From NCBI GenBank assembly GCA_040954595.2, contig CM082582.2:2154303-2218302 (forward strand): 64,000 nucleotides of DNA, read 5' to 3'. The stretch's first letter is position 1; the number at the start of each line of letters is the position of its first letter. This DNA is from Balanoglossus misakiensis (Eukaryota > Animalia > Hemichordata). Both the position numbers and the translations under genes were made by a program. This document shows positions 13,971 to 59,200 of this stretch, piece after piece. A model generated the notes under the pieces. That model ran no database searches. It was given only the letters and a program-made list of their open reading frames with translations, and had not been told where the DNA came from.

Positions 13971-14795
13971 AGGGACAAAGTCTCTCTCTCGCTGCCCTTT
14001 TTAGGTCCCATTGGTATAGGCCTATATACCATGGGACCTTATGGGATTGGTTGCGTCTGTATGTATGTATGTATGGATGGATGTATGGATGTATGTCCGT
14101 CCACATCAAAAACTTGAAAACCACTGTGTGTATCACCTTGATATTTGGTGTGCACATGCAGGCTGGGCTGTAGATGGGAGTTTGTTCAAATGAAGTTGTC
14201 GTTGCCAAAAATATGCAAATTAGCTGGAAAAATGTGAACTTAGTCAAAACTCAGTAACTCAAGAACTACTGGTCAGATTGCTTTGCGAAGTGGTGTGTAT
14301 TTACTTTATTGAGTTGTTTATATACACAGGAAATTCCTGAATGATTACATAACTGGCTAAGTTTTAAAGAGGCCAGCTGTTCTATTTAGTGTGTGTGTCT
14401 GTCAGTATATCGCCATTTACTCCGGTGTAGACTTTTTCTTTTGTATTCCCTCAATGGGACCACTGTGTCCTTGACGCGATTTTTTCCATTATGTTTGATA
14501 CAAGAGACATTTTATATTAATGTACATGTGTATATGTAGTTAATGAACGTTCAACCATACACAATTTCCATCCCACTTGAATGATATGAGCATAAAAACT
14601 CGCATAAAATGAATAAATGATAGAGACCGATTATTGGCGTGTGTTTTTTATCACTCTGGTGGCTACAAGCAGGGTTGAAGTTGTGTGTGGTGAAACATTG
14701 ATTCACTATATATCCACATGTAGAATAACAGAAATGGTGCCCTGTAACAAACCTAATTCATGGAAAAGGGGCAGCGAGGGAGAGAATTTGTCCCT
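13971..14795. mobile_element. TTAA-target (Kolobok-type) MITE, copy 1
   Basis: ttaa|agggacaaagtctctctctcgctgccc ... gggcagcgagggagagaatttgtccct|ttaa; homologous copies at ~49236-49584 and ~58030-58274. Confidence 0.75.
14003..14479 (+). mobile_element. Helentron/DINE-like non-autonomous element (HINE)
   Basis: Inserted in a T-run without TSD; subTIR ggtcccatt...aatgggacc, short 5' inverted repeat, (GTAT)n microsatellite. Confidence 0.6.
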
Positions 14796-32910: not shown

Positions 32911-33650
32911 AAAATCACCATGATCGGTCCCTATAGTCTATATACCATGCCATTTCGTCTATGATGGGGAAAATTGATAATAAGTTCTAAAAATGAAGAT
33001 TGTGTCTAGAGTCTACTACAGGTAGAAGTAGGTCTCTAGCAAGTCATTTGATCACAAAATAACTGACCAATCTCTCTAGTTGTCTTATGCCATAGGAGAG
33101 ATCGTGACGAACACCTGATTTGACATCATACAAATTATCATTCAGAAACTAAGGTTTGAGTTTGTTATAGCGTTGAATTTCTAAGTGAAAACATATTGTA
33201 AAATGTTAAATGGTAATGAGTGTCATGTATGTCTTTATTAAATAGTCTAATATTTTATGGTCATAATGTCAAGCTGCAGCCGCTGTTATTCGATAAATCA
33301 ATACCATGTAACTCCCCAGTTAAAATTTGTAAAAGAAAGATGCTGGTAGGTGCCGATATGCCATTATATCGAATAATGGGTGAGAAGTCGATAATACTGT
33401 AGAACTATAAAACTAGTTTGTTATATGTCAAGGGTGATTTCGGAAAATCCAAATGCCGTTTTGTTGGTAACGTCTGCATACAAATGCTTGTTGGTTGCTA
33501 TGCTAAGCAAATTACCAAACCAGCATTGTTGAACTTTCAAATTGTAACTGTTCCGTTCCCATCCTCGAGTTTTTTTATTTATTTAAAACTTCTGATCTTT
33601 CTATCAATTAAAGCCCCGCGAGTTGCAACTTTATCATTGATTTTTATAGG

Positions 33651-34792
33651 AGAAAGTAATCATGGATGAAAATTTCAGAGCGTGGTTTGATGATGACCTA
33701 CCACGTGGGTGGAAAATACTCCTGCCATGTGGGTGGAAGCATGCTCCGATAGAAATTATGGAATGTTTGGTTAAAGTAACTGGATTACAACTTGATATAG
33801 GTAAGTCAACTAATTTGAGTTGATGGCTGGGGAAATTAATCATGGATGACAATTTCAGAGCATGGTTTGATGATGACCTACCACGTGGGTGGAAAATACT
33901 CCTGCCATGTGGGTGGAAGCATGCTCTGATAGAAATTATGAAATGTTTGGTTAAAGTAACTGGATTACAACTTGATATAGGTAAGTAAACTAATTTGAGT
34001 TGATGGCTGGGGAAAGTAATCGTGGATGAAAATTTCAGAGCATGGTTTGATGATGACCTACCACGTGGGTGGAAAATACTCCTGCCATGTGGGTGGAAGC
34101 ATGCTCCGATAGAAATTATGGAATGTTTGGTTAAAGTAACTGGATTACAACTTGATATAGGTAAGTAAACTAATTTGAGTTGATGGCTGGGGAAATTAAT
34201 CATGGATGAAAATTTCAGAGCATGGTTTGATGATGACCTACCACGTGGGTGGAAAATACTCCTGCCATGTGGGTGGAAGCATGCTCCGATAGAAATTATG
34301 GAATGTTTGGTTAAAGTAACTGGATTACAACTTGATATAGGTAAGTAAACTAATTTGAGTTGATGGCTGGGGAAAGTAATCGTGGATGAAAATTTCAGAG
34401 CATGGTTTGATGATGACCTACCACGTCGGTGGAAAATACTCCTGCCATGTGGGTGGAAGCCTGCTCCGATAGAAATTATGGAATGTTTGGTTAAAGTAAC
34501 TGGATTACAACTTGATATAGGTAAGTCAACTAATTTGAGTTGATGGCTGGGGAAAGTAATCGTGGATGAAAATTTCAGAGCATGGTTTGATGATGACCTA
34601 CCACGTGGGTGGAAAATACTCTTGCCATGTGGGTGGAAGCCTGCTCCGATAGAAATTATGGAATGTTTGGTTAAAGTAACTGGATTACAACTTGATATAG
34701 GTAAGTAAACTAATTTGAGTTGATGGATGGGGAAATTAATCATTCCATAATTTCTATCGGAGCATGCTTCCACCCACATGGCAGGAGTATTT
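33651..34792. repeat. 180-bp tandem repeat x6 ending in an inverted partial unit
   Basis: Lines repeat every 180 nt; 34741-34792 and 37611-37676 are reverse-complement fragments of the unit. Confidence 0.95.
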
Positions 34793-35716
34793 TGAAATCC
34801 CCCCCCCCATTTTCTTTCACAGAGCAAAACACATCACCTAGTATCTATCCCATGAAAAGAATTCGAAACTGATGTACCCCTTCACTGAACATTGCTTTTA
34901 TTTTGTAAGTATTTGTACTCTGTGTTGGGAGACATTGTAAACCGAGAATTGAAGGGGATGGGTTTGGGAGGGGGTGTCCCCCTCCCACGTAAGAAAATTT
35001 TATAAAATACAGAGCTCAAAGCTGAATTTTAATGAACCCGGCAAAAGCAAATTAACTCAACTACCGGTATGTTGGGGAGGACAAATTTAACCGTCGCCGC
35101 TCAAAGTTATCATGGGGTTGGGGCAAGTCCCCTGACCTGGGACACTAGATAAACCAATCAATGATTGAAAGGTGTTGATGAAACAGTATAGAAAACATTT
35201 TCCAATTTCCGAAAAACCTCTTTTTTACATTATTACTGCTGAAAAAGTTAGAAATTTATGAAAATATTCCTTATTCTTTGCCAATTTCTAATGAAAAAAT
35301 TACATAATGGTATTCTTAGTCTCTTTCCTGCAGCTGTACAGCAGGAAAAATGCATTTTGTCATATTTTGGCTTTAAACTCAAATTAAAATTTATCTGTGA
35401 AAAAACTGAGTCTCCTTCAAAGCCACGTACATGACAGTCCTTTTGATTTTTTTCTAATGAAATTTTGTCTCCATGTTTATCATGAGTAATATTTCTATTG
35501 AAAATTTGCAAGTGTGTGAATTGTTTGTAAAATTTCGCCAGAAAAAACAATAGCATCAAAAAGTAAATCTGAAACCCAATATTTATTACAAGAATTGTTA
35601 GATTAATATCCGTATCACACAAATCCGTTGGATTTCGTATGAATTTTAGGAAATAAGCACTGCTAATTGACAAATCCATATTTTGCAGCTGAAATACTTG
35701 GAAAAGAGTCAGCGGC

Positions 35717-36377
35717 ATGTGAGAGCTTGGAAATTTCCAAGCACTGACAAGGGTCAGTGGTCGGAAATTTCCAGACACTCAGGGAATGTGAGAGCCTGGA
35801 AATTTCCAAGCACTGACAAGGGTCAGTGGTCGGAAATTTCCAGACACTCAGGGAATGTGAGAGCTTAGAAATTTCCAAGCACTGACAAGGGTCAGTGGTC
35901 GGAAATTTCCAGACACTCAGGGAATGTGAGAGCTTAGAAATTTCCAAGCACTGACAAGGGTCAGTGGTCGGAAATTTCCAGACACTCAGGGAATGTGAGA
36001 GCCTGGAAATTTCCAAGCACTGACAAGGGTCAGTGGTCGGAAATTTCCAGACACTCAGGGAATGTGAGAGCCTGGAAATTTCCAAGCACTGACAAGGGTC
36101 AGTGGTCGGAAATTTCCGGACACTCAGGGAATGTGAGAGCTTGGAAATTTCCAAGCACTGACAAGGGTCAGTGGTCGGAAATTTCCGGACACTCAGGGAA
36201 TGTGAGAGCCTGGAAATTTCCAAGCACTGACAAGGGTCAGTGGTCGGAAATTTCCAGACACTCAGGGAATGTGAGAGCTTAGAAATTTCCAAGCACTGAC
36301 AAGGGTCAGTGGTCGGAAATTTCCAGACACTCAGGGAATGTGAGAGCCTTGAAATTTCCAAGCACTGACAGGGTCGT
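35717..36377 (+). repeat. 69-bp tandem repeat x~9.5, two GGAAATTTCC sites per unit
   Basis: Unit ggaaatttccaagcactgacaagggtcagtggtc-ggaaatttccagacactcagggaatgtgagagcct; 23-aa periodicity in the ORF track. Confidence 0.95.
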
Positions 36378-36442
36378 GGTAGTCCCCCGTACAGGTCTGC
36401 GTTCTCCCGGAGTTTAATACATGACTTCCACCACATCTCTGC

Positions 36443-36836
36443 AAGGCTCCATGGACAAAACTGATTCGTCTGAGATCCGGATCCGGACAGCAGCTTTTCG
36501 GCCGAGATTCGATTTTATCGGGGGGAATCTTTCCCCCGTCTACCCACAAATGACTCCAAATATGATGTAATTAACTTCCGAGCCGCTCGCTTTCTGATTT
36601 TCTCTTGTGTTTACCTGTTGAGATCGCCATATTGAATACAGTGAGGTTATCTCAATGGGTAAACACAAAAGTTTCAGAAAGCGAGCGGTTCGGATGTTAG
36701 AAGAAGTCAATCGTGGAGTCGGTTATAACCGGTTAGTAGACAGGGAAAGGATATTCTCCCGATAAAATCGAATTTCAGCGAAAAGCTCTGGTACGGATCT
36801 GGACCGCAGACGCAACAGGTTTGTCTAAGGAGCCTT
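36443..36836. repeat. ~390-bp imperfect palindrome
   Basis: Collinear inverted blocks aaggctcc/ggagcctt, attcgattttatcggg/cccgataaaatcgaat, ccgctcgctttctga/tcagaaagcgagcgg, ttgtgtttacc/ggtaaacacaa. Confidence 0.8.
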
Positions 36837-37064
36837 AGCGTCACAATGTTCATGACAGGCTTCGCCTACCAACTCCTCTGAGTTAGCCCATACACTAGTT
36901 GTTTATTGGGAATTGGTATTGTTTATCTGACATAATTGTTCTTTCTACTCTGTATACAAAGTCACAACTTCACAACGTAGGGTTGAAGATATAAACACAG
37001 GCGCAGTTCCTCAACAGATCGTTTTCCTAAAGGCCATAATTTGAAACATGATAGAGAAACTCAA

Positions 37065-37514
37065 GATTTCCAAGCACTGACCCTGTCAATGCTTGGAAAT
37101 TTCCAGGCTCTCACATTCCCCGAGTGTCTGGAAATTTCCGACCACTGACCCTGTCAGTGCTTGGAAATTTCTAGGCTCTCACATTCCCTGAGTGTCTGGA
37201 AATTTCCGACCACTGACCCTTGTCAGTGCTTGGAAATTTCTAAGCTCTCACATTCCCTGAGTGTCTGGAAATTTCCGACCACTGACCCTTGTCAGTGCTT
37301 GGAAATTTCCAGGCTCTCACATTCCCTGAGTGTCTGGAAATTTCCGACCACTGACCCTTGTCAGTGCTTGGAAATTTCCAGGCTCTCACATTCCCTGAGT
37401 GTCCGGAAATTTCCGACCACTGACCCTTGTCAGTGCTTGGAAATTTCCAGGCTCTCACATTCCCTGAGTGTCTGGAAATTTCCGACCACTGACCCTTGTC
37501 AGTGCTTGGAAATT
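37065..37514 (-). repeat. Inverted copy of the 69-bp array x~6.5
   Basis: Reverse complement of the 35717-36377 units. Confidence 0.95.
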
Positions 37515-38750
37515 ATTTCAAATCCCCCCCTTACATACCCTCAATTTTTTCAAATCCCCCCCCCCTCAATTCTCCTGCCCCCCCCTCCAGAGGTGTTTGT
37601 GAATGCAGCCTTACCTATATCAAGTTGTAATCCAGTTACTTTAACCAAACATTCCATAATTTCTATCGGAGCATGCCAGACACTCCTGTCACAGTACCGT
37701 AATTGATACAAAGGCAAACTGTTATATTTACTTTCCTGAGTTAATTTTCACGAAGTGTAGTAAAATATCTAATTATATGTGCCTCCCACACCATAACACC
37801 GTACTTTCTCCGTATGTACACTGTAGCTGCACATGCGCTCTCGGTGGATGATAGATGACCTTGGGTCATGTAATCAACACGCGACCTTACGTCAGCTGCC
37901 TCCCCAGGGATAAGCCTCACCACTGCCCACATGGTAGCTGGGCAGGAACTCTTCGACTCGCGCACTTACCCTATCCCATTCTCGTGTCGACGCTGTACAA
38001 ACGCAACGCGCATGCGCGAGTTAACCCGGAAGCGTTTGCAGCGTGATTCGTACAGTTTTCTCTGCTGGAGCCAATTACTTGAGACTTCTGGCCGTAATCA
38101 TGAGGAGGAGAAACCAATAGTACAGAAATAGAGTTAAAGGAGTTGATGAATTGTCGTTTCGGACGGTTTAACTTGGTTAAGTATAAACGAAATGAGTTTT
38201 ACCGTATAATGTCGCGATCAGTAACATGGTCAACTGATCGATTTTGATATGATGGGTGTTCGTCACAACCCTCATATGATCGTGCGTACAATCCCTTTCT
38301 TTTAGTTTTGCATGTGGATAACTGATTTTAACAGTTGGTATGTTTTGGTCTGATTGATAGACAATAACATCCCAATGTATCTCACTTGACCAGCATATAG
38401 ACTATCTTCTTTGCATTCAATTGTTTTACTGTCTATCAGACTATCTTCTTTGCGTTCAATTGTTTTACTGTCTATCAATCAGTTGCCCTACCACCACGAC
38501 AAGGTACATACCATAGGTAGGGAATGTAGGTGTTCTGTGTGTGCATAGTGAGTGTGTGTCAATGTTGACATTTAGCAAATATATCACATTGCATGATCGG
38601 CATTATTATTACTCGTACTGGTATTTTGTTGATGTCCATTTGTATTTTACTGCTTTTAAATCCACATTTTTTGCACAACAAGGATATGACAATGGTAATT
38701 GCAAGCCACAAGAATCACACTGTCTTGTAATTGTGGCATTGATCATGAGC

Positions 38751-41700
38751 TTACCTGTCGGTGAAGGACAGAGGTGTTATACTACCAACAGCATTGCTGA
38801 TATCATTCCCAGTTGTGAGCTGATTGAATTTTGTAAGTAAATGTCTTGGTTCATCCAGTGAAGTTGTTAATAACACTGCACCCAACTGATGTCCACTCAA
38901 GATGTGATAGTGGGAATCAAAGAGAATCAACTGAAAAAAAAGACAATGATAGTTCATCTAACTTTGTGTGTACTTTAATACAAGTATATTTTCATGGTTA
39001 TATCTTATTATTTAGAGTTAGATGTTTTCATATTAAGTGAATCAAGTGCCATGGTGCCCAAAACTCAAGTTGGATAGCAGTATTATAATTATGTTATTAT
39101 TTGACTTAATGAAATGCCAAAAATACACAGCAACTGTTTTGTGATAATCATTACCTTGTTTTGGTGCCTGTAGAAAACCACACTCTGTCCTCGTGAAATG
39201 TATATTGCAGTGTAAATGGTTTCTCGTGAGAACTGTTGTTGTAACTGATATACAAGACTTTCTGTTGTGTCGCTGAAATTGTTGTAAACAGGACCTATCT
39301 CTTGATTGTATTGTGTAGGAAACCTGCAATGTGCAACTGCCTCTTCAACAGTCAAATTAAGTGAAGGGGGAGAGACATGTTGTTCGATATATCTGGAAGT
39401 GAAAGAAAAATAATTTGGTAAGTACTGAATAATAATGTTCCAACTATGAGTAAAGATCCGCCATACATGTAACTTTGACCTCTGTAGAAACATTTTACTG
39501 ACACATTTTTTTTTTAAATTTGGCTGGATGATGACTTTACATATACATATACATGTACATTGTTTTTACATTATTCATGATTGATAAAGTATCATACACA
39601 GGCTTACCTGTCATGGCTTTCATTTCCTGACTTGAGACCTAAATACAGTAGTGAACTAACTGCATGGGGTAGAGATGTGTGTGTGTTTACCTGGGATGGA
39701 ATCTGATCCAGGACTGCTCTATTCAAATGGAACAGTCTAGCTATATACAAAGCGATTATGGTACATGCATTGCTGCTGCCATGTCTTACACCGGCCTGAC
39801 TGAAACTGGGTGGAAATACCCAATATAAACAGTTGTGATATGACTGTGTTTGAGGCATGGATAGAAGCATTGTAAATGATCTACCGGACGAGGATGTAGT
39901 GTTGTTTTGTGACTGGTGCTGTGTCTGGCTTTGTCTTTGTATTGGAGGTTGTTCTCGGTGTGGCTGGTGTTCTTGGTGTCTACTAGTAATAGTATTGTCT
40001 GATGAGTTCTCACTGGTTTGTGCATGTAATAGCAAAGGACATGTTATTTATGACTTTGTTTGTTGTCTTGGTGTGACCATACTGTTTACAATGTGAACAC
40101 CGTCTTCTGCTAGCTGCAAATGGTTGAGAAGATGGTTGTGTATTGGTACACGTCTGTCTGTCTGGTTGATGGTGTGGTCTTTGAATGTGTATATTTTGAA
40201 GTTTTGTGGAGAGGTCAATACCAAACTGGGGTGAAATGTAGTATTGCCTATCTCTTTGTGTGATGACAGGTGTAACATTACAAGTGGATGTTTCTTCATC
40301 TGTGCGCTGTTGTTGTGTTTGCTGTTGTTCATTTGAAACTGTAGGTGATGATTGTGTGGGCTGAAGGAGAGAGTCATTGAGGGATTTGACTAGTTTCTGT
40401 GCCTGATCCTGAATAAGAGGTGTGCATATTGGACAGCTTGAGTCAGTTTCAAGATGTGAGGAATGTATAAGATGACGGCATGGTAGGTGAAGGAGATCTG
40501 TAGTGTCATTATGTGGGTTGGAACAACCAGGATGGTCACATAATTTGTGAGGTGCAGGATCATGTGCTACTACATATGAAAGTGGCATTTGCTTGGGTTG
40601 AATCTGTGTGTGTAAGGTCTTAAGGTGGTAAGTTGGAGGGCCACGTGGCAAACCATCACTATCTGTATCCTGTGTTTTCTTGGACTTTCCAATATTGGCT
40701 GCTATATCTGTAAACAAGGTGGTCATAGCTTCTGCTGCCTTCCCTGCCAAGACGGAGTAATCCCTTTTGCTGATCCCTCTCTGGCCTGGTGGTATGAACA
40801 CGCTGGTTAGCTGTTGTTGGCAACTGTTGCAGCTGAGAGACCGGGCTGTTTTCTGGATGTCAGAAGCTGATATGTTGGTTCGTTGTGTGTGTCTTCTGAG
40901 CTGTGCATGAAACAACTCAACAAGAGCTTCAGTGAAAGCAGTGAGATATGAAGAATAGTGTGATGTTAAAGATGTGAAAGATAGAGAGTGAAATTCTGAA
41001 TCACTCAAGTATGACAGACATGCCCTGTCGTAATGATGTCGTCCCCACTGGATGAAGAAGATGCTGATTCTCTTCATGAGTTGTTGATACAACTTGTAGT
41101 TACCAGATCGGAAGACAGCAGCATACAAGAGGAGACAAGCTGGTAGAATGTCTTCCAGGGCATGGATGACAAAATCAACCTCTGGATCCTTGCAGTGGTG
41201 GAAGGTTTGAAGTACCTGCTCACGGACCAATCTCCAGCCAAGGTAAAATGTACACAGCACCAGTTTTGTCTGCCATGGTCTTGGTTTCAAGGGAAGGTCT
41301 CTCTGGAACACTGCCTTGTACAATGGAGCATAGATTGCCCAACACATCATCACATGGTCTTCATCGATGTTGAGGTTGACATGTAGTGGTCCCTGTCTTG
41401 GAATAATATTTGTATTAATCTTACCCTGTGCTTGTAATTTCTTGCTGAAAAACCACCCAGGCCAATCTGCTATCATAACCACGGCATACTTTGCAGAGTA
41501 TAATCTGAAAGCAGGAATTTTGTCTAAGATGTGTTGATAACATGTTTGGTAATTCTCAAGACAGTGGAGAGGCATTTCAAGGAGATCAACAAGATGTGAG
41601 TGTTTGAGTGAGTGCATCATCCTGAATTGATATTCTTTGTATAACTTGAAATGCTCCAACATTTCATCAAATTTGTCTGGTGTGATGTTTGTGTAGTCTG

Positions 41701-43934
41701 TTGGTAATGAATCCATGATAGTTTGTGTTTGGCTCATGGTCTCTTGTATAGTGTGTGTTATTATGTCAGGATCTACACCACCAATGACACCATTAACTAC
41801 ATTGTGCATTGTTTCATTTATTGGTATGGCAGGGCAACCTGGAATAGATATTAGTATTGTAGCAAAGTGGAGAGCAGAAGATGTTTTCATGTCTGTGGGT
41901 CGTTTGTGTAATTGTATGTGATGATAATCATCTATGTTAAGGGTGATCAACAGTTTCTTCTGTGAGGGAGAAAAAAGATAAAATGTATAATTATTAAGTG
42001 GATTTAGAACTTCCAGAAGATGTACATGTATATGTACACACAACACAAACATGATGTAATACTGATCACTGACATTTCCACTTTCAAGCAGAATACCAAT
42101 TTTAGATGATGGTTATGTAAAAAAATCAATTTGTATAACTAATTTGCTAAGAAAATAGATTTTATTCAAACAAAATTTCTACTTACATTGTATGCATCTA
42201 ACACACGCCTATTTGTTGTTTCAAAGTTTCGGGTGGCAAGATGTTCTCAAAGCGCTTTATTGTGTTTTGGCTAGCAGAATACCCCATCACACGGCCCAGT
42301 ACCAACCCTTCCCAAGAGAGTCCATGTTGACGAAGAAACAAGCCACAGTCCTTTTCCAGTGTGGAACACTTTTGTGATCTGTCTCAAGAAATTTTGCATG
42401 ATTGGTTAATGTGTACTCCCCACAGCAGTTTTATATAAAAACTGAAATAATAACTGAAAATATTTGTAACATACATTTTTAATCTGTCTGAACATGACAA
42501 ATGGACCATAGAAATTACCTGAAGTAGGAGAGAATGTGTAGTAGCGCAACAGTTCTTTTTCTTTGCAGATGATATCTCTCTGTTGATAGCCTATTGTCTC
42601 TTCTGCAGATTGAATTGAAGATGGCCTGATATAATCCTGGACTGTGTTCGTTGCAAAATGTCTCCATGGACTCACTGCTATACAATCTTTTGTGGGGATT
42701 TGTCTCATAATATTTTAAGAGGGCTTGTTGAAACAACTGTACTGATTCCGCAAAGTTAAAACCTACCAAGCAAACATATTAAAGGGTGAAGACAAGTTTT
42801 CAAAATACCAAATATCTAGCTCTTGACATTGTTATTATTTTTTCACATGATTGATACAGTTCAACTCATACCCTGTGTGTAGGGATAATGCAAAAATACT
42901 TTCATGTGTTTATTTCTGGTACTGACCAAAATTATGTATTCACAGTATTTCTGGTGACTTTAATAAAAATTGATGATATTGGTCTGGTAACCAAAACATG
43001 TGTGGTTAACCTAGTTGAATAAAATGGCTATTTACCTTTTGACAACTTTTTGACGTCTCCCATTATTTTGTCCCAAATGTCCCCCTTTACATGGAAATGG
43101 CCATCGGAAAACTGGATGACCCCGTACAGTGTTTGCATAAATGTATCTTCAGTAACCTGCTGAAAAATATTTAATAAAATATACTGAAAAAACCTGAACA
43201 TGGACATAATATGAATAATTTAATTACATGTACTCTCTTGTGATGTAATATGAATGATTGCATTCTTTTATCAATGGTCAAAGTTATTAACCATGTGATA
43301 CTTACATTACAGTTGGTCTCATGCTCGTCACAGGTCGAGTCAGGCAAAGAGTGGTGGAATGGAACTGGAGCTCCTCCCTTTTTGTGCAAATGAAAATGAA
43401 AAGTTATTCTAGATTTCTAGTAACCATGATTTTGTATTGCTGGCCAGTATCCATTCATTTGCCAGTTAAATTTTCATATTTTGAACAGATAAAATTAAAA
43501 ATCGTACTACCTTTGTGTTACGTGATTTAGATTTTCAGCAAACTCTAATCAAACATGATATATAATGGTGATTTTTTTCTCAATGATGTTGAATTTTATC
43601 AGAAAAGTCACATACAAGATTCCCTCACCTGATGTTCAACTCTTTGCAAACAAGTATGGCAGATCATGCTTCCTACAGTGTTCAGACCTTTCTGCCGTAA
43701 TTCAACCAAAACCTGCATTGGGCATGATCTTAATGACCTCGAATGACCAGTTGTTGATGGATATATGCAGGTCTTGATTCGGCGGCTCTTATCATAGTGA
43801 AGTCTGCATAAAAATTCCCCCTCCCCCACTGCAGCAAACAATGCATGTCTACCATAGACTCGACGGCGCTCACCACTACATAAATCTTGGTATTGAGACC
43901 GTGTACGTGGTGACAAAGCGCATATCATCGCCAT
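38751..43934 (-). pseudogene. Multi-exon Academ/DUF6589-like DDE transposase fused to RING-like finger, CCHC knuckle and C-terminal cysteine protease domain
   Basis: Exons ~43934-43629, ~43377-43306, ~43160-43036, ~42763-42518, ~42378-42187, ~41959-39607, ~39392-39154, ~38930-38751; motifs RSQK..G.FL...G.S, NIDDYH, IADWPG, GPLH, TEALVELFH, CDHPGC..PCRHLIH..CPIC, CSHCKQYGH..TCP, GSSNACT..FDSH; 4-bp duplication frameshift at ~40045 and lesions in 5' exons. Confidence 0.7.
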
Positions 43935-43979
43935 CGTCAGGTTTGGCGTAGTACTGACTGGCTTCCTTATGAGTGAATG

Positions 43980-44201
43980 ATTTCAAATTTCCAACTTATA
44001 GCCATCATGTTGCTAAGGACGCCGTCATGGTTAGTTCAAAATTCGCGCCACGCTGTTGTTATGTTAATTACATCAGCAAACGTGTTAATTTCGCATTTCA
44101 AATTTCAAATTTCCAACTTATAGCAATCAAGTTGCTAAGGACGCCGTCATGGTTAGTTCAAAATTCGCGCCCCGCTATGTTAATTACATCAGTAAACGTG
44201 C
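43980..44201. repeat. ~120-bp tandem duplication just upstream of the Academ-like gene
   Basis: atttcaaatttccaacttatagc...gttgctaaggacgccgtcatggttagttcaaaattcgcgcc occurs at ~43980 and ~44102. Confidence 0.85.
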
Positions 44202-47200
44202 GAATTTCGCGGCAAGACTGACTTCCGCATCAAAACACGCTCAAAATCATTCTAGTTCTACGTCCACGGTGTTACAGAAACAACATTTTGTTGTTATTTT
44301 GTATAGCTGTGTAGTAATTTAATATTATTAATAGCATTATCTGCTAATTTCACGTTCAGGTGGTTGCATCATCGGGGACGATGGCCTTGTGCAGTGTCTT
44401 GAATCTCGTCTGTACTAATAACCATGCCAAACTTTCGCTAAAGAAGGCATGACCAACTTCGGAAGCTTGGAAACATACTCGGGCAAGCGAAGTTTTTTCC
44501 GGGCAAAAGTATGGCTTTGAGTCAATTACTAAGCTTCAATTTGGAAAAGTTTTAGAACCAGCAACTTTAATTTGAAACCAGCAACTCCTTAAAACTGAGG
44601 ATACGTCACTGAAAAAATGAAGGCTCCAAAACGGAGGGACAAATGTGCGTGATTTATTCCTTGCAGAAAATGACTCAAAATAAACTATAAAATGCATTTA
44701 GAATGTTGTTGTTCGTGTACATTAATCCCTGTGTAGTTTTTACTTCGGAAAGATCGACGGTTGAGTAACCCAAGCACCTCCATTTTTGTTGATGCGCGCA
44801 GGAATCAAAGTCTCGACCACCCCTCCAGTGATAATCGACGAACTATTGTCAAAGAATGCGCACAACTATGCGCAATGCATTTGTACAGCGTCGAATTCTC
44901 GTGTACGTTAAGGCGTGGGCGCCCTCTATCGACAGACTGAATACGTTAATCGAGCATAATAAACAATTGTAACCACACCAGCCAATCAGTTGATGTAATT
45001 CATGTTCAAGACAAGCAAATAAAATGAGACATTTCCGAGAAAACCTCCAAAACTATTATCATGTGACAAATAGTGGCATTTTGGGGGTCGAAAATGATAT
45101 TCTTAAAAGAAGGCCAAAAATCCACCGCTAGATGCTCACAATCCCATTATTATTTTTTAGTTTCACCTTATGACCCGTCAACTTTCTCTGATAGGACTCA
45201 TACTGTAGTGTATTTCGCTGCCATAATATTTTGACGATGTAGATTATCGACTACCCATTGACCGGCAGCCAAAATTCCAACATTTATAGGGTTATGCTGA
45301 ATCATTAACTACGTTTTCAAACACAGTATCGTAATCTTGAAATGGGCGAACATGTTAACCTTCGATTACGACCAGAGGTGTCAGAAAATAAAGCTGTTTA
45401 GCGGTGGATTTTTCGTATTTTCCGCCTCGTAAATTATCCTTACCCTGGGACGCTCGTCCAGGGGTGCCATTACGTAATGCCTTAGTTGGCGTGATGCATT
45501 GTGGGTAAAATCAGCTGATCGTATACGCGTATCCTAGCAACTGACATGGACGCTACCATTAGCGCCCGCCCGCGTTCAAGATCATTTTAGTGTCGCTACA
45601 GTTCAGAAAATCGGGAACATACATAATTCCCAATCAGTTTGGGATGATTTTTAGCCACAAGTAGTAATTACTGTCACTCATTCACTTATTTAACAAGCCA
45701 TGACAACATTATATGAGGGAAATAAACCTTTATTTCAACTTCAATCTGGTGAGTACATGGTTTTCATTTTACCCCATCAAAATAGTGCGTCTTGAAAGGT
45801 CAAAGTTCAACTTTTCCTTTGTTCATGTAAAATTGGCGCCATATTCAAATTGCAGCAGATGATCCCTTCAGCTGTTATTTGGAGGTATGCACTTGTTCAG
45901 TTGGCATGTTATCATGGCATTTTGTGGTTATTTTATGGCCATAGCTGCAAGAGCAACAAAAGAGCTTTCTAATTCCGAAAGTCTACTCAGGAAAAGGCTG
46001 AAAATACATCAAGATTTATGCCTGTTTACAACATATCCATTGGACAAAGGTATGCCAAATATCAGGATATCATGGCTAACAGCAGAAATATGCAAGTTAC
46101 CAGTTTAAATTTAAACTGCCACGATTTGAGAAAACACTAAGTGCTTCAGTTCAATGGTTGAATTCCAGGAAAAATGTCAGTATTTCTACAGCATTTTTCT
46201 GCAACTAGTTGGCAAAAACTGCCTTTATCAAGGCAAATCCTACACACAGCACTTGACTGTCAAGAGTGCCAAAGTAGCAATGTTGATGTTCTACTTTTGA
46301 ACAAGTACTATCAGAAACATATCAAAAGTCTTCCCTTCTCGACTGTTGAGGTAATTGAAGATGCAATGGGAGAGATGCAACAACTACAAAATCCACATGA
46401 GACAAAGCTGACTGTCCCTCTTAAATCTGCCGTAAGAACTGCCGGACAGCTATATCAGCGAGTAGAGGAGTCATACAATAAAGTGTACTCAACACCTTTC
46501 AGTGAAGCGCTTCTCAAAGTTCCGGGGTTCAAGCTACAGACAAAAATCAGCAAAGAACAGAAAAAGAAAGACAGACGAGCACTTTATACTAATGTCAAGC
46601 AAAGCATCGAAAAATCCCACGCTAAAAATGACGGAGATTTAAAAACAATCCTAGGATCCGGTCAGTCATTTGCTTGCTACGAATCATGTTGACGGTCTGT
46701 TGACTTTGAGTCTACCGATTCTGCCAAGAAGCGAGTAAATCGCCGTCTACAACTAGAATCCCTCAACAAGCTGACACCAAAAGACCATGTTGTAAAAACA
46801 GAGTCTGTTGAATGGGACAAAAGCTCATTTGTAAGTGAACTTTCCAATTATGATGCTGGCAAGGTCAACTGGAGTAGCCTTGCGAGAAAGTACGGGCTAA
46901 CAGCTGCAAATGGTGGCCAAATACTGAAAGTACGCAACCTCAGCTGGCATCGACACTGACAAGTTCAATATCAATAAGAAGGTTCAAGGTCGAGATTTTG
47001 TCAGAAGAGTACACCGTAAAACATTGAAAGGTCTTGGGGGAGGTGTCACTTCCTCAACACCGACCAGCAAGAGCCCTGCAAGAAATATTGAAAACAAAAA
47101 TAAGAAGTGGCGAAATCGACATCGGTGAATTAATAGCACCAAAAGAGTTCCAAAAGATGACCATTGGAAAAGATGGCAAATTAAAAGAAGAAACTTATAC

Positions 47201-49235
47201 AATCTACGCTAGAAAAATAAACTTACAGACAATCCGAAAACGAGAGCTTGACAGACAAATTAAGCTTGGTGTTCTGAGAAGCCATGTTTATGGGTATGAC
47301 GACGGTCATTACCAAAACCTAGAAGAAAAAGAAATAAGGGATGAGCTACAAAGAATACACGAGTTGAAAGAAGGAGAAACCATCGATGAAATGCGCAGTA
47401 AATTAAAAAGACTACATCACTCACGGCACTTCAAAATATGGCATGACCACAGTACTGTAGGCAACCATTCCCACATTGTCTTCATGGTGAGCTGGATATA
47501 CGACGCGGCAACATATCTGACAAATGAGGAGTACTTGGAGAAACACGGAAAAAAAGTAAACGTTGACTCGCTTGTTGAGAAGCCACATCTATATATAATG
47601 GGACGATCCAACTCCAATGACGTTGATCAGCTGTCATATGTTGAAACCAGAGTAGAAGATCTAAAATGTGCAACAGGACCAATAACATCCGACGAAGGTT
47701 CCAGGGAATACACAGATGTCCACCGATTTTTTCATGGCGATGGACCGGCACAGGAGTTTGAGGATTAGCACCAGAAAGGAGGTCACTACCAGTGCATCTG
47801 TGGAATAGAGTCAAGAAGACATGATGATCTGTCTGCATGTTACCATCTGAAATATCTGTCAATAGATGAGAAACGTAACTTGTTAATCAAGGGCAGCCCA
47901 ATATGGAGAGAAAAGTCACGGCAAACTCCCCATCCATTTGCCAACTTAACAGTGGCCGACCTTAGGAGAGAGCTTGATGCTAGGGGTGAAGAAACTGAAG
48001 GATTAAAGAAGCCAGACTTACAATCTAAACTCTCTGAAATTTTACATGGTATGCAGAGAGTACCAGCACTGCTCCATCTCACTCCAGAATATGATCTTGC
48101 TGAAATAAACTGCTCTGCATATGAAATTTTGCCATCAGAGCCACTCCATGACCTGAATGGACACATCCACAATGTGTTAGAAGAAATTCCAGCACAAACC
48201 AAGGATAAAGAAGAAGCAGTAAAGTTACAGAACTTTATTCAGGCAACATATGGTGGTAAAGACGAAATTCGGGGATGCGATGCACGCAAAGCTATCCTTC
48301 TGGTGTCCCAGTATCTTCACGAGAACAACATAAATACTGAGCATGGTCAGCTTATTGACACGCTTGCTGAAATAAGCGAAACTGCTTATAAACATGACAA
48401 TGACAGATGCCCACGACTGATTCTGCGATTGTATAACACTGTATTTTTGCATGGAATATTGTGCAAAAGGGTATTTGAGAAGCCAAAGAAACTTACCAAA
48501 CGAAAGATGTTCGGGCGGTATTTCCATAACATCACCGTCCATCTACCTGATCAACTGAGATTGGTTTCTCTGAGGTCAACAAATGCTGAAAACCAGGAGC
48601 GAGTTTTCAATCGAATACGGAGAGTGACGAAAACAACTTCCTCCAAGCGTCCAGGTGGTATCATAGGTAATGCCATGATACGTCTAGGTGCAGAAGAAGA
48701 GATGACAAAAGAAAGAGATCCATCACAAATTATAGAATCTGAAATTAGCAAAATTGGAAAGCAGCTCCCAAAACGTCAGAATACAGTAATCCCTGAGGAC
48801 GAAATACTGCGACGACCAACACTACTGCAAAGCCACTATGAAAGGATTGCAGATTTCTTGCTGCCAGGAGAAGGTGCATTGTGGCAGAGACATGAGGAAG
48901 CAATAGAGTTTTTAACTCTGATACCCAGGATGATTTCAAGGTATCTGCAGTGCAATTTAGTCCCAAATATTTTAACTCACACTTTTATTTCTTTTCAATA
49001 ACAATTACTGTTGATTATATGCAGACATAATACAACAGATTGCATGGTGTTTTGGGACAGGAAAAACTAATCTAAAATATAGTATCAAAGCATCAAAAAT
49101 TACATCTATACATGCCCTGTCTTTTTCATGGAACTTTTCTGTCAAGCAGGTTCTGTTATTTTTTGTGACGAGCAACCTCCATTTTTACAAATAATAGAAC
49201 TATTCTCGGATATCCCACATGTTTTATGGCTTTCT

Positions 49236-49584
49236 AAAAAGGTCTCTCACTCGCTGCCCTTTTTCTTTTTGTGTTTTGATACAAAACACCATTTATGTTA
49301 ATGTACATGTGTATATGTAGTGAATGAACGTTCAACCACACACATGTTCCACCATGCTTGTATATGAGAGTAAAAACTCGCCCAAAATGAATAAATGGTA
49401 GAGACCGATTGTTCATTTTGGCAAGGTTTTTCACTCTCGTGTCTACAAGCGGGATGGAAGGTGTGTGTGGTTGAATGTTCATTCAGTATATATCCACATG
49501 TACATTAACATAAACAGTGTCTTGAATGAAACATAATATTAATGGGAAAAGGGCAGCGAGAGAGAGAGAGACTTTGTCCCTTTA
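49236..49584. mobile_element. TTAA-type MITE, copy 2 (intronic)
   Basis: Homologous to 13971-14795 minus the nested insert; ends ...actttgtccct|ttaa. Confidence 0.75.
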
Positions 49585-56236: not shown

Positions 56237-59200
56237 TTGCTCGAAGAACGCCACGACGAGTTGGTCGAAACATTTAGTCCGCCGCAATCTAGGGAGAATT
56301 CCCAGTGTTCTGTTTCAGCCGATAGTGTACGCGATCACTGCCACCAGGGAGACGACGACGATAGCGATGAAGACGAGCCAGTACCTGAAGCAGAGCCAGT
56401 CGAATTGGCGAGACTGTACTCTCAGTTACACCCAGAGATGGGTCAAGAAGATCGCGAAGAAGGAAATGACTGTGACGCCTTGGATAAGCCATCGGTGGAG
56501 GCCGTAATGCGGACTGGGTGTGTTTGTAAACACCAGTGCTACTCGAACTTTGCTGTGGACAGGGTGTGGGAATACCGTTTGAACATGTCAGAATTCCAGA
56601 AAGACCATCTTGATGTTCTCATCCTTGCAAAGTTAGAACAGTGTGAGGTTCATGGAGAACCTGTCCGTGGTGGTAAACGTGCGCGACAGTCCTTTGATTT
56701 ACGTCTTTGATGGTCAACGCGTGTGTGAAAAAGTTTGGCGTTACATTCACAACTTGGGTGAGTGGCAGGGTATTTTTACGTTGGCACCAATGATTTATTT
56801 ACACGTCGTGATATCCTCATCACACCCTGTGCGAGCATGAGTACTCGAAATGTGGATTGTTAGGTGAATTATTGCATCCGATTGTTGATTTTTAATAGAT
56901 TCCCCACATCACGTAGTTTACCGTAGTGCAGCAGTGACAGTCAATAAAGGATGATGATGTCATCTTTTTCCTCCCTCACATGACCTTTGTTTACTTGGGG
57001 ATTTTTCTCAAAGAGTTTTCTAAGTGTCCTGGCCCCCACAATCTTGATGTTGATTTTTTAAGAGAAGACACAACTTTACAGTAATTTCTTTTTAAATGTG
57101 TATCAAACGATTTTGAGAAGATTTAAACTACAGAGAAGTCATTGTTTTGACATAATCTTGGGATAGTATTAGTTAGTATTATCATCCTATAACTCTAATT
57201 ATAGGGGAGAAAAGGTTCAAGAATTTAAAGGCCCACTACAAAATCCATGGTGTGGTACCCAGATCTCATGGTCGTCGAGGAAAACGACCAGCCAATGCCT
57301 ATTCATTTGAAGTAAGTATTACATTTCTGCATGCCATAACAAATATCTTTAAGAAGTATATTCTTATACCATGTAAATGTGTATAAGAGTGTACTTATAC
57401 TTGGTAATAAATTTCATATTTATGGTTTATTATTATCACGCAAACATGTGCTTTTATGTCAAAGGGACAGGAATAGGTGCTCAGTACAGACAGGTTTCCA
57501 GATTAGACAGGGTTCGGTTTATTGTTGCCTTGAGTCGTAACAAAGGCGTCAGGATTTATTATAACACACCATGCAGCGAACACTCGATCGTGATTCGTCA
57601 ATACGCCGTCACGTGACCTTAGTCATTTCGAACTGTTCCCTAGGGCATGATTTCGATCGGTTTCTGCCTGGTACTGTTGCCTGGATGTTGTGTGTGTCAT
57701 GTTTGGTGTGTTATAAAACACATGATGACTGACATATTCGGGCAACGGTGTATTTTTGATGACCTCGGGACTGCTAGTCACAACTAAAACAGTCTTGTTT
57801 TCCCTATGCCCTCAGTCCCAAGGTCATCAAAAATACACTGTTGCCCTCATTGTCACAGTCAGTCATCATGTGTATACAGTAATACTGTATCTGGGCCCCT
57901 CAATATCTTGTCTCCTCCTCCTGACAGCTGCTTCATATGCTGGCCATCTTGAAGTAGTATTTTTCACCCACAGTTTGGAGCATGCCCAATTGACACTGAG
58001 ACTTTCACATGGACCCTCCGACATTGAATCAGTGCTCGACCACACACAACATCCACTTTGCAGGATGAGAATAAAAATCTTGTCAAAATGAATAAATGGT
58101 AGAGACCGATTATTCATTTCGGCCAGTTTTTCACTCTCGCATCTTCAAGTGGGATGGAAGTTGTGTTTGGTCAACAATGATTCCCTATATCCACACGTAG
58201 AATAACAAATGGTGTCTTGTATCAAACATAATTAATGGAAAAAAGGGCAGTGAGAGAGAGACTTTGTCCCTTTAGGTGGTTTGCTATCTAACCTGTATAT
58301 GTGTTCTCAGTGTTCACTAATTTATTTTGAGTGACTTAACTATTCTTTTTTCCAAACAGACAGTGCAAGATGCTGTTCAGTTCCTGGTCAGATATGCAGA
58401 TGACAATGGTCTGCCTATGCCAGCTGCTCCTTGTGGTAGAGATGGAAGGCCTCCGATTTATCTTCCATCCTGTGACACCAAGGCTGATATGTATAAGAAG
58501 TATATGGAGGCCTGTAATGTTTGTCAGCCAACCAAGCAGCCTGTGGGGGAGACAACTTTCCGAAATATCTGGAAATTGTGTGTACCACACATTCAGCGAA
58601 TGGAACCTCGTACAGATGTGTGTGCCAAATGTGAACACTTCCGGAATGAAATTCAGTTTGCCTCAACAGAAGAAGACAAACTGAACTCTAGTATTGCATT
58701 CTCAGGACACATTTTGAAATCACAAAATGAAAGAGAATTTCTGAACTTGTGCATTAGAAAGGCACAGGATGAACTCAGAGACATTGAAGTTCAGCCCCCA
58801 TGTAGTCCTTGCTCTTATGATTTACATAATGTTCATTATACACTTGATTTTGAGTTTTCTGCTGCCCCATCAGTCTCGTCAAGTTAGTCCACTGTATTTT
58901 CTGAATCCACTACGTGTAAATTGCTTTGGTATATGTAATGATAGTCAACAATCTCAAATGAATTATCTGTTTGATGAGTCTGAGACCATTGGCATTGATA
59001 ACAGAAAGTGCCATGGTGCCAATAATGTAGTTAGCATGCTTCACAATTATTTTGAGGAGCATGGATTGGGTGAAAAGAGTTGTCATTGCCATGCTGACAA
59101 CTGTGGAGGTCAGAATAAAAACAAAACTGTCATTCATTATTTTTGTTACCGTACCAGTACTGGTTAACATGACGAAATTAATTATCATTTCTTGGAACCA

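Follow-up and report, generated by a model that had tools for sequence, protein, structure and literature searches.

We describe here a broken copy of a cut-and-paste DNA transposon in a 64,000-nucleotide stretch of the hemichordate Balanoglossus misakiensis genome (GCA_040954595.2, contig CM082582.2, positions 2,154,303 to 2,218,302 of the forward strand; hereafter the window, to which all coordinates refer). The element is bounded by terminal inverted repeats (TIRs) and an exact target-site duplication (TSD), and contains one predicted gene whose product probably joins a DDE transposase, a RING finger, a zinc knuckle and a C-terminal VTD cysteine protease that is likely to remove ubiquitin. 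The gene is interrupted by two breaks, both absent from read contigs, and the same fusion is present in intact relatives. An initial annotation made from the sequence alone had proposed a single protein with a DDE core, a RING-H2-type finger, a zinc knuckle and a C76/VTD protease, and splice phases, read contigs, folds and fused homologues all agree with that proposal.

Ends and target site of the element

The element spans 37987-44894 (6,908 bp) and has 27-bp TIRs and an exact 9-bp TSD; these ends emerged in the present analysis and were not part of the initial annotation.

37978..37986: left TSD copy, 9 bp, identical to 44895-44903
37987..38013, plus strand: TIR at the 3' end of the gene, 27 bp, matching the other end at 24 of 27 positions
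44868..44894, minus strand: TIR at the 5' end of the gene, with TGCGCA at position 21
44895..44903: right TSD copy, 9 bp, matching 37978-37986

Among TSD lengths from 3 to 13 bp the flanks match at 9 alone, and with a criterion of a 12-bp perfect inverted repeat plus a 9-bp flanking direct repeat, at most 20 kb apart, the TIR and TSD pair is unique in the whole window. The element was moved by TIR-type transposition, leaving a 9-bp duplication, and now apparently lies within the 5' part of another DNA transposon of higher depth. Contigs from three public DNA runs (X1, X2 and X3, from one sample and one study) were aligned to the region, with X3 giving barely any coverage of the element; one X1 contig departs from the window exactly at 37987 into a different flank, which is what a copy at another site would give.

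Inside the TIRs and outside the gene there are 764 bp and 960 bp, with longest stop-free frames of 78 and 82 amino acids (aa). No helicase gene fits in these scanned 764 + 960 bp, there is no room outside the gene for an XPG or second nuclease gene, and no room inside the TIRs for a Rep or helicase.

A direct duplication of about 115 bp lies in the 5' region of the element (43985-44215), where an X1 contig skips 112 bases, so that this duplication may be specific to this copy. In the 3' region a short tandem duplication (38363-38469) is skipped by an X1 contig.

Gene structure and the two breaks

The gene is modeled on the minus strand with eight exons (43934-38751) and 1,233 codons, with no internal stop once both breaks are read through with X, and its seven GT-AG introns are 140-273 bases each. 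The exons and the motifs they encode are as follows.

43629..43934, minus strand: exon 1, Cys/His-rich N-terminal zinc-binding region; starts at ATG 43934; matches the Branchiostoma belcheri homologue P0001 (E 5e-6)
43306..43377, minus strand: exon 2, predicted from splice signals and phase, with a weak AAG acceptor
43036..43156, minus strand: exon 3, predicted from splice signals and phase alone
42519..42762, minus strand: exon 4, helical N-terminal region; homologue match E 6e-14
42187..42378, minus strand: exon 5, with a one-base gap near 42245 seen against X1 and X2 contigs; homologue match E 1e-11
39608..41959, minus strand: exon 6, DDE core, RING-H2-type finger, knuckle and N-terminal part of the VTD
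41930-41932 (or the next D), 41465-41467, 41381-41383 and 40916-40918, minus strand: DDE residues D, D, H and E in exon 6 (codon positions derived from residue numbers)
40424-40540, minus strand: RING-H2-type finger in exon 6, followed by a low-complexity linker and then the knuckle
40039-40099, minus strand: zinc knuckle in exon 6, followed by a linker and then the N-terminal part of the VTD
40044..40047: tandem duplication, four extra bases that break the frame in this copy; absent from the spanning X2 contig
39763-39765, minus strand: catalytic Cys codon in exon 6
39155..39392, minus strand: exon 7, VTD middle; AG/GT, phase 2 to 0; aligns with the Ptychodera flava homologue P0007
38751..38930, minus strand: exon 8, C-terminal part of the VTD with Asp-Ser-His and the stop codon; AG acceptor, phase 0
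38916-38918 and 38910-38912, minus strand: Asp and His of exon 8

The expect values (E) for exons 1, 4 and 5 were computed within a set of 150 homologous proteins (see below). Exon 1 residues C5, C19, C43 and H46 are conserved in 12-13 homologues, and this zinc region is likely to be DNA-binding.

At the first break, the minus-strand frames 40010-42112 and 39604-40047 are parted by a tandem ATAA duplication (40040-40047). An X2 contig (520 bases, spanning 39890-40408) has exactly four letters fewer at 40044, and X1 contigs stop or start at 40047/40048 without bridging the duplication site. As the initial annotation had noted, skipping the duplication joins the two frames and completes the zinc knuckle, although the knuckle is C-x2-C-x4-H-x9-C, with a last spacing of nine residues, as in P0001, rather than the eight it gave. 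At the second break, in exon 5, which the initial annotation had missed, one base is missing near 42245, and the extra base is present in two X1 and two X2 contigs. This copy, broken twice, would yield no full-length protein.

The two downstream exons previously proposed (39392-39155 and 38930-38751) are retained, with AG acceptors, GT donors, and phases 2 then 0, except that the one encoding 'VEEA' begins about 15 codons earlier; the former gene limit at 41959 is merely the acceptor of exon 6, and five more exons reach the ATG at 43934. Sixteen exonic read variants were tested (nine changing, seven silent), of which none falls in the DDE residues or the protease triad, a number too small to show selection.

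The transposase core

A full HMMER scan identified 550 relatives at E up to 0.001, of which the best 150 were fetched; a word-index search with the core yielded 0 of 4,598 candidates, and none of the window's own frames matched a Pfam transposase or protease family. When the model was aligned with 71 of the 150 proteins, each of at least 300 aa, conservation was strong at D322 (44/47), D323 (43/47), D477 (59/62), G502 (63/63), H505 (61/63) and E660 (56/59).

Folded with 83 relatives, the window core gives a model with a predicted local distance difference test (pLDDT) score of 91.5. In VIA-align comparisons it matches Hermes (Z 10.6, root-mean-square deviation (rmsd) 7.0, 273 residues aligned), the P element (Z 10.3, rmsd 5.8, 276 aligned) and Tn5 (Z 9.7, rmsd 3.8, 179 aligned), and every structure ranked 1-36 is a DDE transposase, an integrase or a RAG1-type recombinase. 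By this model the window core has a DDE transposase (RNase H) fold, and the alignment shows a conserved D-D-E. The nearest ESM Atlas clusters are those of DUF6589 (0.96, with a recognition value below the trusted level), and the Pfam DUF6589 family matches 3 of 40 long relatives and 2 of 84 aligned members (E 2.8e-6), always below cut-off; judged by these sequence comparisons the core is DUF6589-like. We take DUF6589 to be the Academ transposase.

The C-terminal protease

The product of the last three exons includes a putative catalytic Cys, C1043, and the motif D1179-S-H1181. VTDs are defined by a catalytic Cys and an Asp-x-His motif, and the flipped D-x-H triad is their signature (Erven et al. 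2022, PMC9741609). The initial annotation had recognized the signature of peptidase C76 (UL36/BPLF1-type), and the Cys and D-S-H are indeed kept, but the Cys lies in the context G-S-S-N-A-C (S/T-N-A/S-C in homologues) rather than the proposed G-x-N/Q-C.

A VTD profile made from the model and five homologues matches 10 of the 150 proteins, four of them over only part of the domain; the other six are its five seeds and P0019, which is matched in full. When built without the window sequence, the profile scores the window tail at E 1.9e-16. The window DSH aligns with that of all five seed homologues and, through a 12-row profile (A2), also with Wc-VTD1; searched against the PDB, A2 has Wc-VTD1 as its sole match (8ADB/8ADC, E 4.4e-5), with the Cys and D-x-H aligned. 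Herpes_teg_N is matched by 2 of the 12 A2 rows, below cut-off, and in the ESM Atlas the window exon with the Cys is near a cluster with 32% Herpes_teg_N members (0.95). The Cys and D-S-H are retained in all seven complete homologue VTDs that were checked; the pairs compared are 17-40% identical.

Because the window triad spans three exons, the domain of P0007 was folded in its place (28% identical to the window VTD over 205 columns; pLDDT 77). Foldseek matched this domain to five chains at E up to 0.001, all of them from VTDs or M48 (8ADC at E 2e-7), and VIA-align places 8ADD first (Z 16.5, rmsd 3.0, 183 aligned) and M48 2J7Q second (Z 14.2, rmsd 3.6, 182 aligned). The papain-like M48 fold expected from the initial annotation is thus found by both methods on this homologue. 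Taken together, the profiles and the homologue model identify the last domain as a predicted VTD/C76-type cysteine protease, and by analogy with characterized VTDs it is likely to remove ubiquitin from its substrates. Single-sequence PDB searches with P0009 or P0005 returned nothing, 39 pattern matches in viral contigs included none that was confirmed, and searches for longer VTD carriers returned one and three proteins, all of the same transposase family, and so give no information on which other elements hold the nearest VTDs.

Related elements and proteins

Relatives with the core, RING and VTD in one protein share about 30% core identity with the window. Most of the 150 homologue matches are fragments ending before the RING, and the last Cys pair of the RING is present in 26 of 58 relatives covering at least 250 core columns (four of these 26 belong to an outgroup and are uncertain). 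Nine of the 26 extend at least 150 aa past the RING: seven have a VTD match (five complete, two partial), one stops where the VTD begins, and P0005 of Lingula anatina has a different domain. VTD parts are carried by proteins of P. flava, B. belcheri, Acropora muricata (a cluster mate of P0107) and Nematostella vectensis, with the P. flava cluster spread over four different large contigs. The relatives in Gigaspora, Diversispora, Oscarella and Pompholyxophrys (Glomeromycota, a sponge and a nucleariid) stop 65-125 aa past the RING. A quick tree places the VTD carriers in two of its three large groups, with none in the fungal and protist group, a resolution at which single and multiple VTD gains cannot be told apart.

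Among metagenome loci, 9 of 27 have a VTD match. Loci L001-L004 encode the core, RING and VTD in a single stop-free frame of 1,089 codons within a TIR element; they are 99.7-99.8% identical and so count as one family. The L001-family element is 6.4 kb, with a TSD of 10 bp in L003 (8 in another register) and 9 or 10 bp in L001; L002 and L004 have no TSD and neither is counted, and L002 is probably an assembly chimera, since the left flank of L003 is joined to the right flank of L001. The L005 element is 14.5 kb with a 9-bp TSD, and L006 is 3.7 kb with a 799-codon frame, no tail, perfect 30-bp TIRs and no exact TSD. TGCGCA is found at TIR positions 20-21 on at least one end in L001, L003, L005 and L006. 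No helicase is present among the frames scanned in L003, L006 and L005, the many short frames of L005 being only partly scanned.

P0005 and L005 (3985-9288) share a tail (E 1.3e-8) that is unrelated to the VTD and occupies its slot. This tail starts with N-x-C-P-x-D, and a downstream L005 frame has G-A-H-Y and Y-Y-D-G, motifs reminiscent of the Cys and His boxes of USP proteases; Pfam and the PDB gave no support for a USP-like assignment. MAFFT misplaced the short L005 exons, and the alignment was used for the long-frame tail alone.

Four proteins (P0116, P0132, P0143 and P0145) form a long-branch metagenome outgroup that shares the catalytic motifs and scores highest against DUF6589. The N-terminal exon of L003 (1539-1961) matches Pfam FAM60A above cut-off (E 2e-8), hinting that the FAM60A/SINHCAF zinc region may be related to the N-terminal zinc region of this transposase.

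Weighing the fusion and the protease assignment

Several observations weigh against reading the gene as a transposase fused to an active ubiquitin protease. The splice junctions are predicted from DNA alone, exons 2 and 3 from signals and phase only. Foldseek found no match for the core at E 0.001, its top rows being Hermes, the P element and RAG1, and for a helical core model of 553 residues a Z of about 10 is no more than moderate. The M48-like fold is read from P0007 only, the window VTD being tied to it by the profile (E 1.9e-16), and the YopT-type protease AvrPphB ties with Wc-VTD1 in VIA-align of the P0007 domain (Z 12.4), so the substrate cannot be read from the fold alone. In the L001 family the motif is E-x-H rather than D-x-H, and P0025 is without the Cys motif. 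Lastly, the tail-less L006 has an intact frame and perfect TIRs, and the protease is thus not needed in every lineage.

The dependence on predicted junctions could suggest that the protease exons are an untranslated passenger, either a captured gene piece or the remnant of a Helentron, in which VTDs are common (PMC9741609). We consider this extremely improbable and already largely refuted: the catalytic Cys and the core are in one exon if the insertion peculiar to this copy is left out, in L001-L004 a single stop-free frame contains all the parts, homologues at 17-40% identity retain the triad, and there is no space for a Rep or helicase within the TIRs.

The AvrPphB tie bears instead on the substrate, as AvrPphB is not a deubiquitinase (DUB), and a target other than ubiquitin, such as NEDD8 on cullins, SUMO, or the transposase polyprotein itself, would also fit the long low-complexity linkers that flank the knuckle and the second activity of herpesvirus VTDs as deneddylases (PMC9741609). 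The best structural and the sole sequence-profile matches are tested DUBs, however, and the flipped D-x-H triad is that of VTDs (PMC9741609), which leaves a non-ubiquitin target very unlikely. We favor a VTD-type deubiquitinase translated as part of the transposase.

The RING finger

The finger behind the core has eight zinc-ligand columns that are near invariant in the family (C786 in 37/40 to C824 in 37/37) and fit the C3H2C3 RING-H2 pattern. In the window the sixth ligand is His (Cys in 32 of 33 others) and the first spacing is C-x4-C. Pfam RING families match as many as 13 of 84 members, with scores that stay under the curated cut-offs. RINGs that bind E2 enzymes typically have a Trp in the central helix and a linchpin Arg after the last Cys, and some active RINGs are without these hallmarks. 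Here the central helix has no conserved Trp, and the linchpin Arg is not conserved either, the column after the last Cys being variable (L 8, E 8 and K 4 of 37).

With a RING and a VTD in one chain, the near-invariant ligands and the sub-threshold Pfam matches raise the prospect that the RING is an active E3 ligase, which together with the VTD would remodel the ubiquitin chains carried by chromatin or by silencing factors where the element inserts. We regard such a pairing as distinctly unlikely: the RING is kept in protease-free lineages and so does not depend on the DUB, the E2-binding positions are variable, and the cross-brace finger of piggyBac binds DNA (PMC5861402). As far as these sequence patterns indicate, its retention in lineages lacking the protease makes the RING more probably a part of the ancestral transposase, with a structural role or one in binding DNA or chromatin, than a partner ligase.

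Relationship to known transposons and proteases

The predicted protease shares its fold and the Cys and D-x-H with the Helitron/Helentron VTDs (DrT1-VTD2, 8ADD) and herpesvirus M48/UL36/BPLF1 (C76, PF04843), and like Helitron VTDs it is a domain within a transposon polyprotein. The carriers differ, a DDE cut-and-paste transposase with TIRs and a TSD here and the rolling-circle RepHel in Helitrons, and, unlike Helitron VTDs, the domain here comes last in the protein, following a RING and knuckle. The element itself is not a Helitron or Helentron (HUH endonuclease plus helicase, RepHel), as the core folds as DDE and TIRs and a TSD are present. VTD hosts named in the available part of PMC9741609 are Helitrons, inactive copies in insects, bacteria, fungi, protists, nematodes and flies, with no DDE transposon there. 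VTDs have so far been published from herpesviruses and Helitrons, and a DDE cut-and-paste carrier is an extension of this range. A search of literature titles and the starts of abstracts found no VTD on a DDE transposase, with Repbase and subscription journals, which could hold such an Academ family, outside that search; the available parts of PMC10799480, PMC4455052, PMC5751038 and PMC12210899 contain nothing on a VTD joined to a DDE transposase.

The description of the element as Academ-like in the initial annotation is upheld as a likeness only: the core is DUF6589-like and the TSD (9 bp in the window and L005, 10 in L003, 9 or 10 in L001) has the 9-10-bp length of AcademH, but the defining helicase and XPG partner genes are missing. 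AcademH elements have a helicase and 9-10-bp TSDs, AcademX elements a nuclease and 3-4-bp TSDs, and the difference in TSD length has been linked to these partners (PMC10045372). Membership of AcademH fits in TSD length and fails on the element-encoded helicase, for which there is no room; AcademX is rejected by a TSD of 9 bp rather than 3-4 and by the lack of space for a nuclease. Since no helicase or XPG gene fits, we describe the element as Academ-like and as neither AcademH nor AcademX; the fused RING, knuckle and protease and the 27-30-bp TIRs also set it apart from Academ.

The TSD length and DUF6589-like core would also be accounted for if the element were an AcademH copy from which an internal deletion had removed the helicase gene, and which was moved in trans. 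Three TIR-bounded relatives of differing size (L003 at 6.4 kb, L006 at 3.7 kb and the partly scanned L005 at 14.5 kb) show no helicase among the scanned frames, making independent loss in each unlikely, and with DUF6589 matching just 2 of 84 members, below cut-off, we give such a deletion little credence. With TSDs of AcademH length and no helicase, the family provides a test of the suggestion that Academ TSD length follows the helicase or nuclease partner (PMC10045372).

In Ginger1 and Mutator transposases the C-terminal protease is of the OTU or Ulp1 type (Bao et al. 2010, PMC2836005); they are similar in having a DDE transposase with an exchangeable C-terminal ubiquitin/SUMO protease, for which a role in transposition has been proposed (PMC2836005). 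The element described here differs in its transposase family, its VTD protease class, and the RING in between. As in piggyBac (PMC5861402, PMC8086355), a RING-like zinc finger lies right behind the DDE core, but the core is unrelated to that of piggyBac and a protease follows the finger. The OTU and Ulp1 tails of Ginger and Mutator and the VTD tail here point to repeated selection for ubiquitin removal during transposition.

A proposed role for the fused protease

In the mechanism we favor, the N-terminal zinc region would bind the TGCGCA-bearing ends, and D322/323, D477 and E660 would cut and join DNA, with the 9-10-bp duplications arising without an element-encoded helicase. Helitron and herpesvirus VTDs cleave K48, K63 and K11 chains (PMC9741609), and the tethered VTD may likewise act on chains of the K48 and K63 types. 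Its substrate would most likely be the transposase itself, or else chromatin or repair proteins at the transposition site, and its action could let the transposase escape degradation; Helitron VTDs have been proposed to save transposition proteins from the proteasome (PMC9741609, Discussion). The protease would be a later, exchangeable tail gained in animal lineages. The intact natural 6.4-kb element of L001-L004, with its 1,089-codon frame, makes the role of a transposon DUB directly testable.

A broader proposal, which we put forward as speculative and on balance unlikely, is that these elements form an unnamed DDE lineage, sister to Academ, in mycorrhizal fungi, nucleariids, sponges, cnidarians, brachiopods and deuterostomes, that makes 9-10-bp TSDs without a helicase and in animals has on the transposase both a ubiquitin writer, the RING, and an eraser, the VTD or a USP-like replacement, for editing ubiquitin where transposition occurs. 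In any case Helitrons are no longer the sole candidate source of the herpesvirus tegument DUB, and if the proposal were true this lineage would be a second possible donor.

Neighboring sequences

A second DNA transposon lies at 44904-49350, with gene pieces on the plus strand (46162-49001) that include a SAP domain and are broken by stops and shifts; its depth in X1 contigs is about 16 times higher. Several motifs (WHDHS, GDGPA..C-x-C, EPLHDL and ENQE) resemble those of RAG1/Transib-type cores; a PDB sequence search with it found nothing, and the ends of this host transposon were not found. To the left of the element, at 35714-37514, a 69-bp tandem array is broken by a 771-bp spacer and resumes in inverted orientation, giving 368-bp arms with 99% complementarity, and a 180-bp tandem array (33634-34848) is stop-free for 399 codons on the minus strand. 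Copies of a very high-depth short repeat are located at 14586-14757, 49364-49537 and 58065-58131, and are probably a non-autonomous element.

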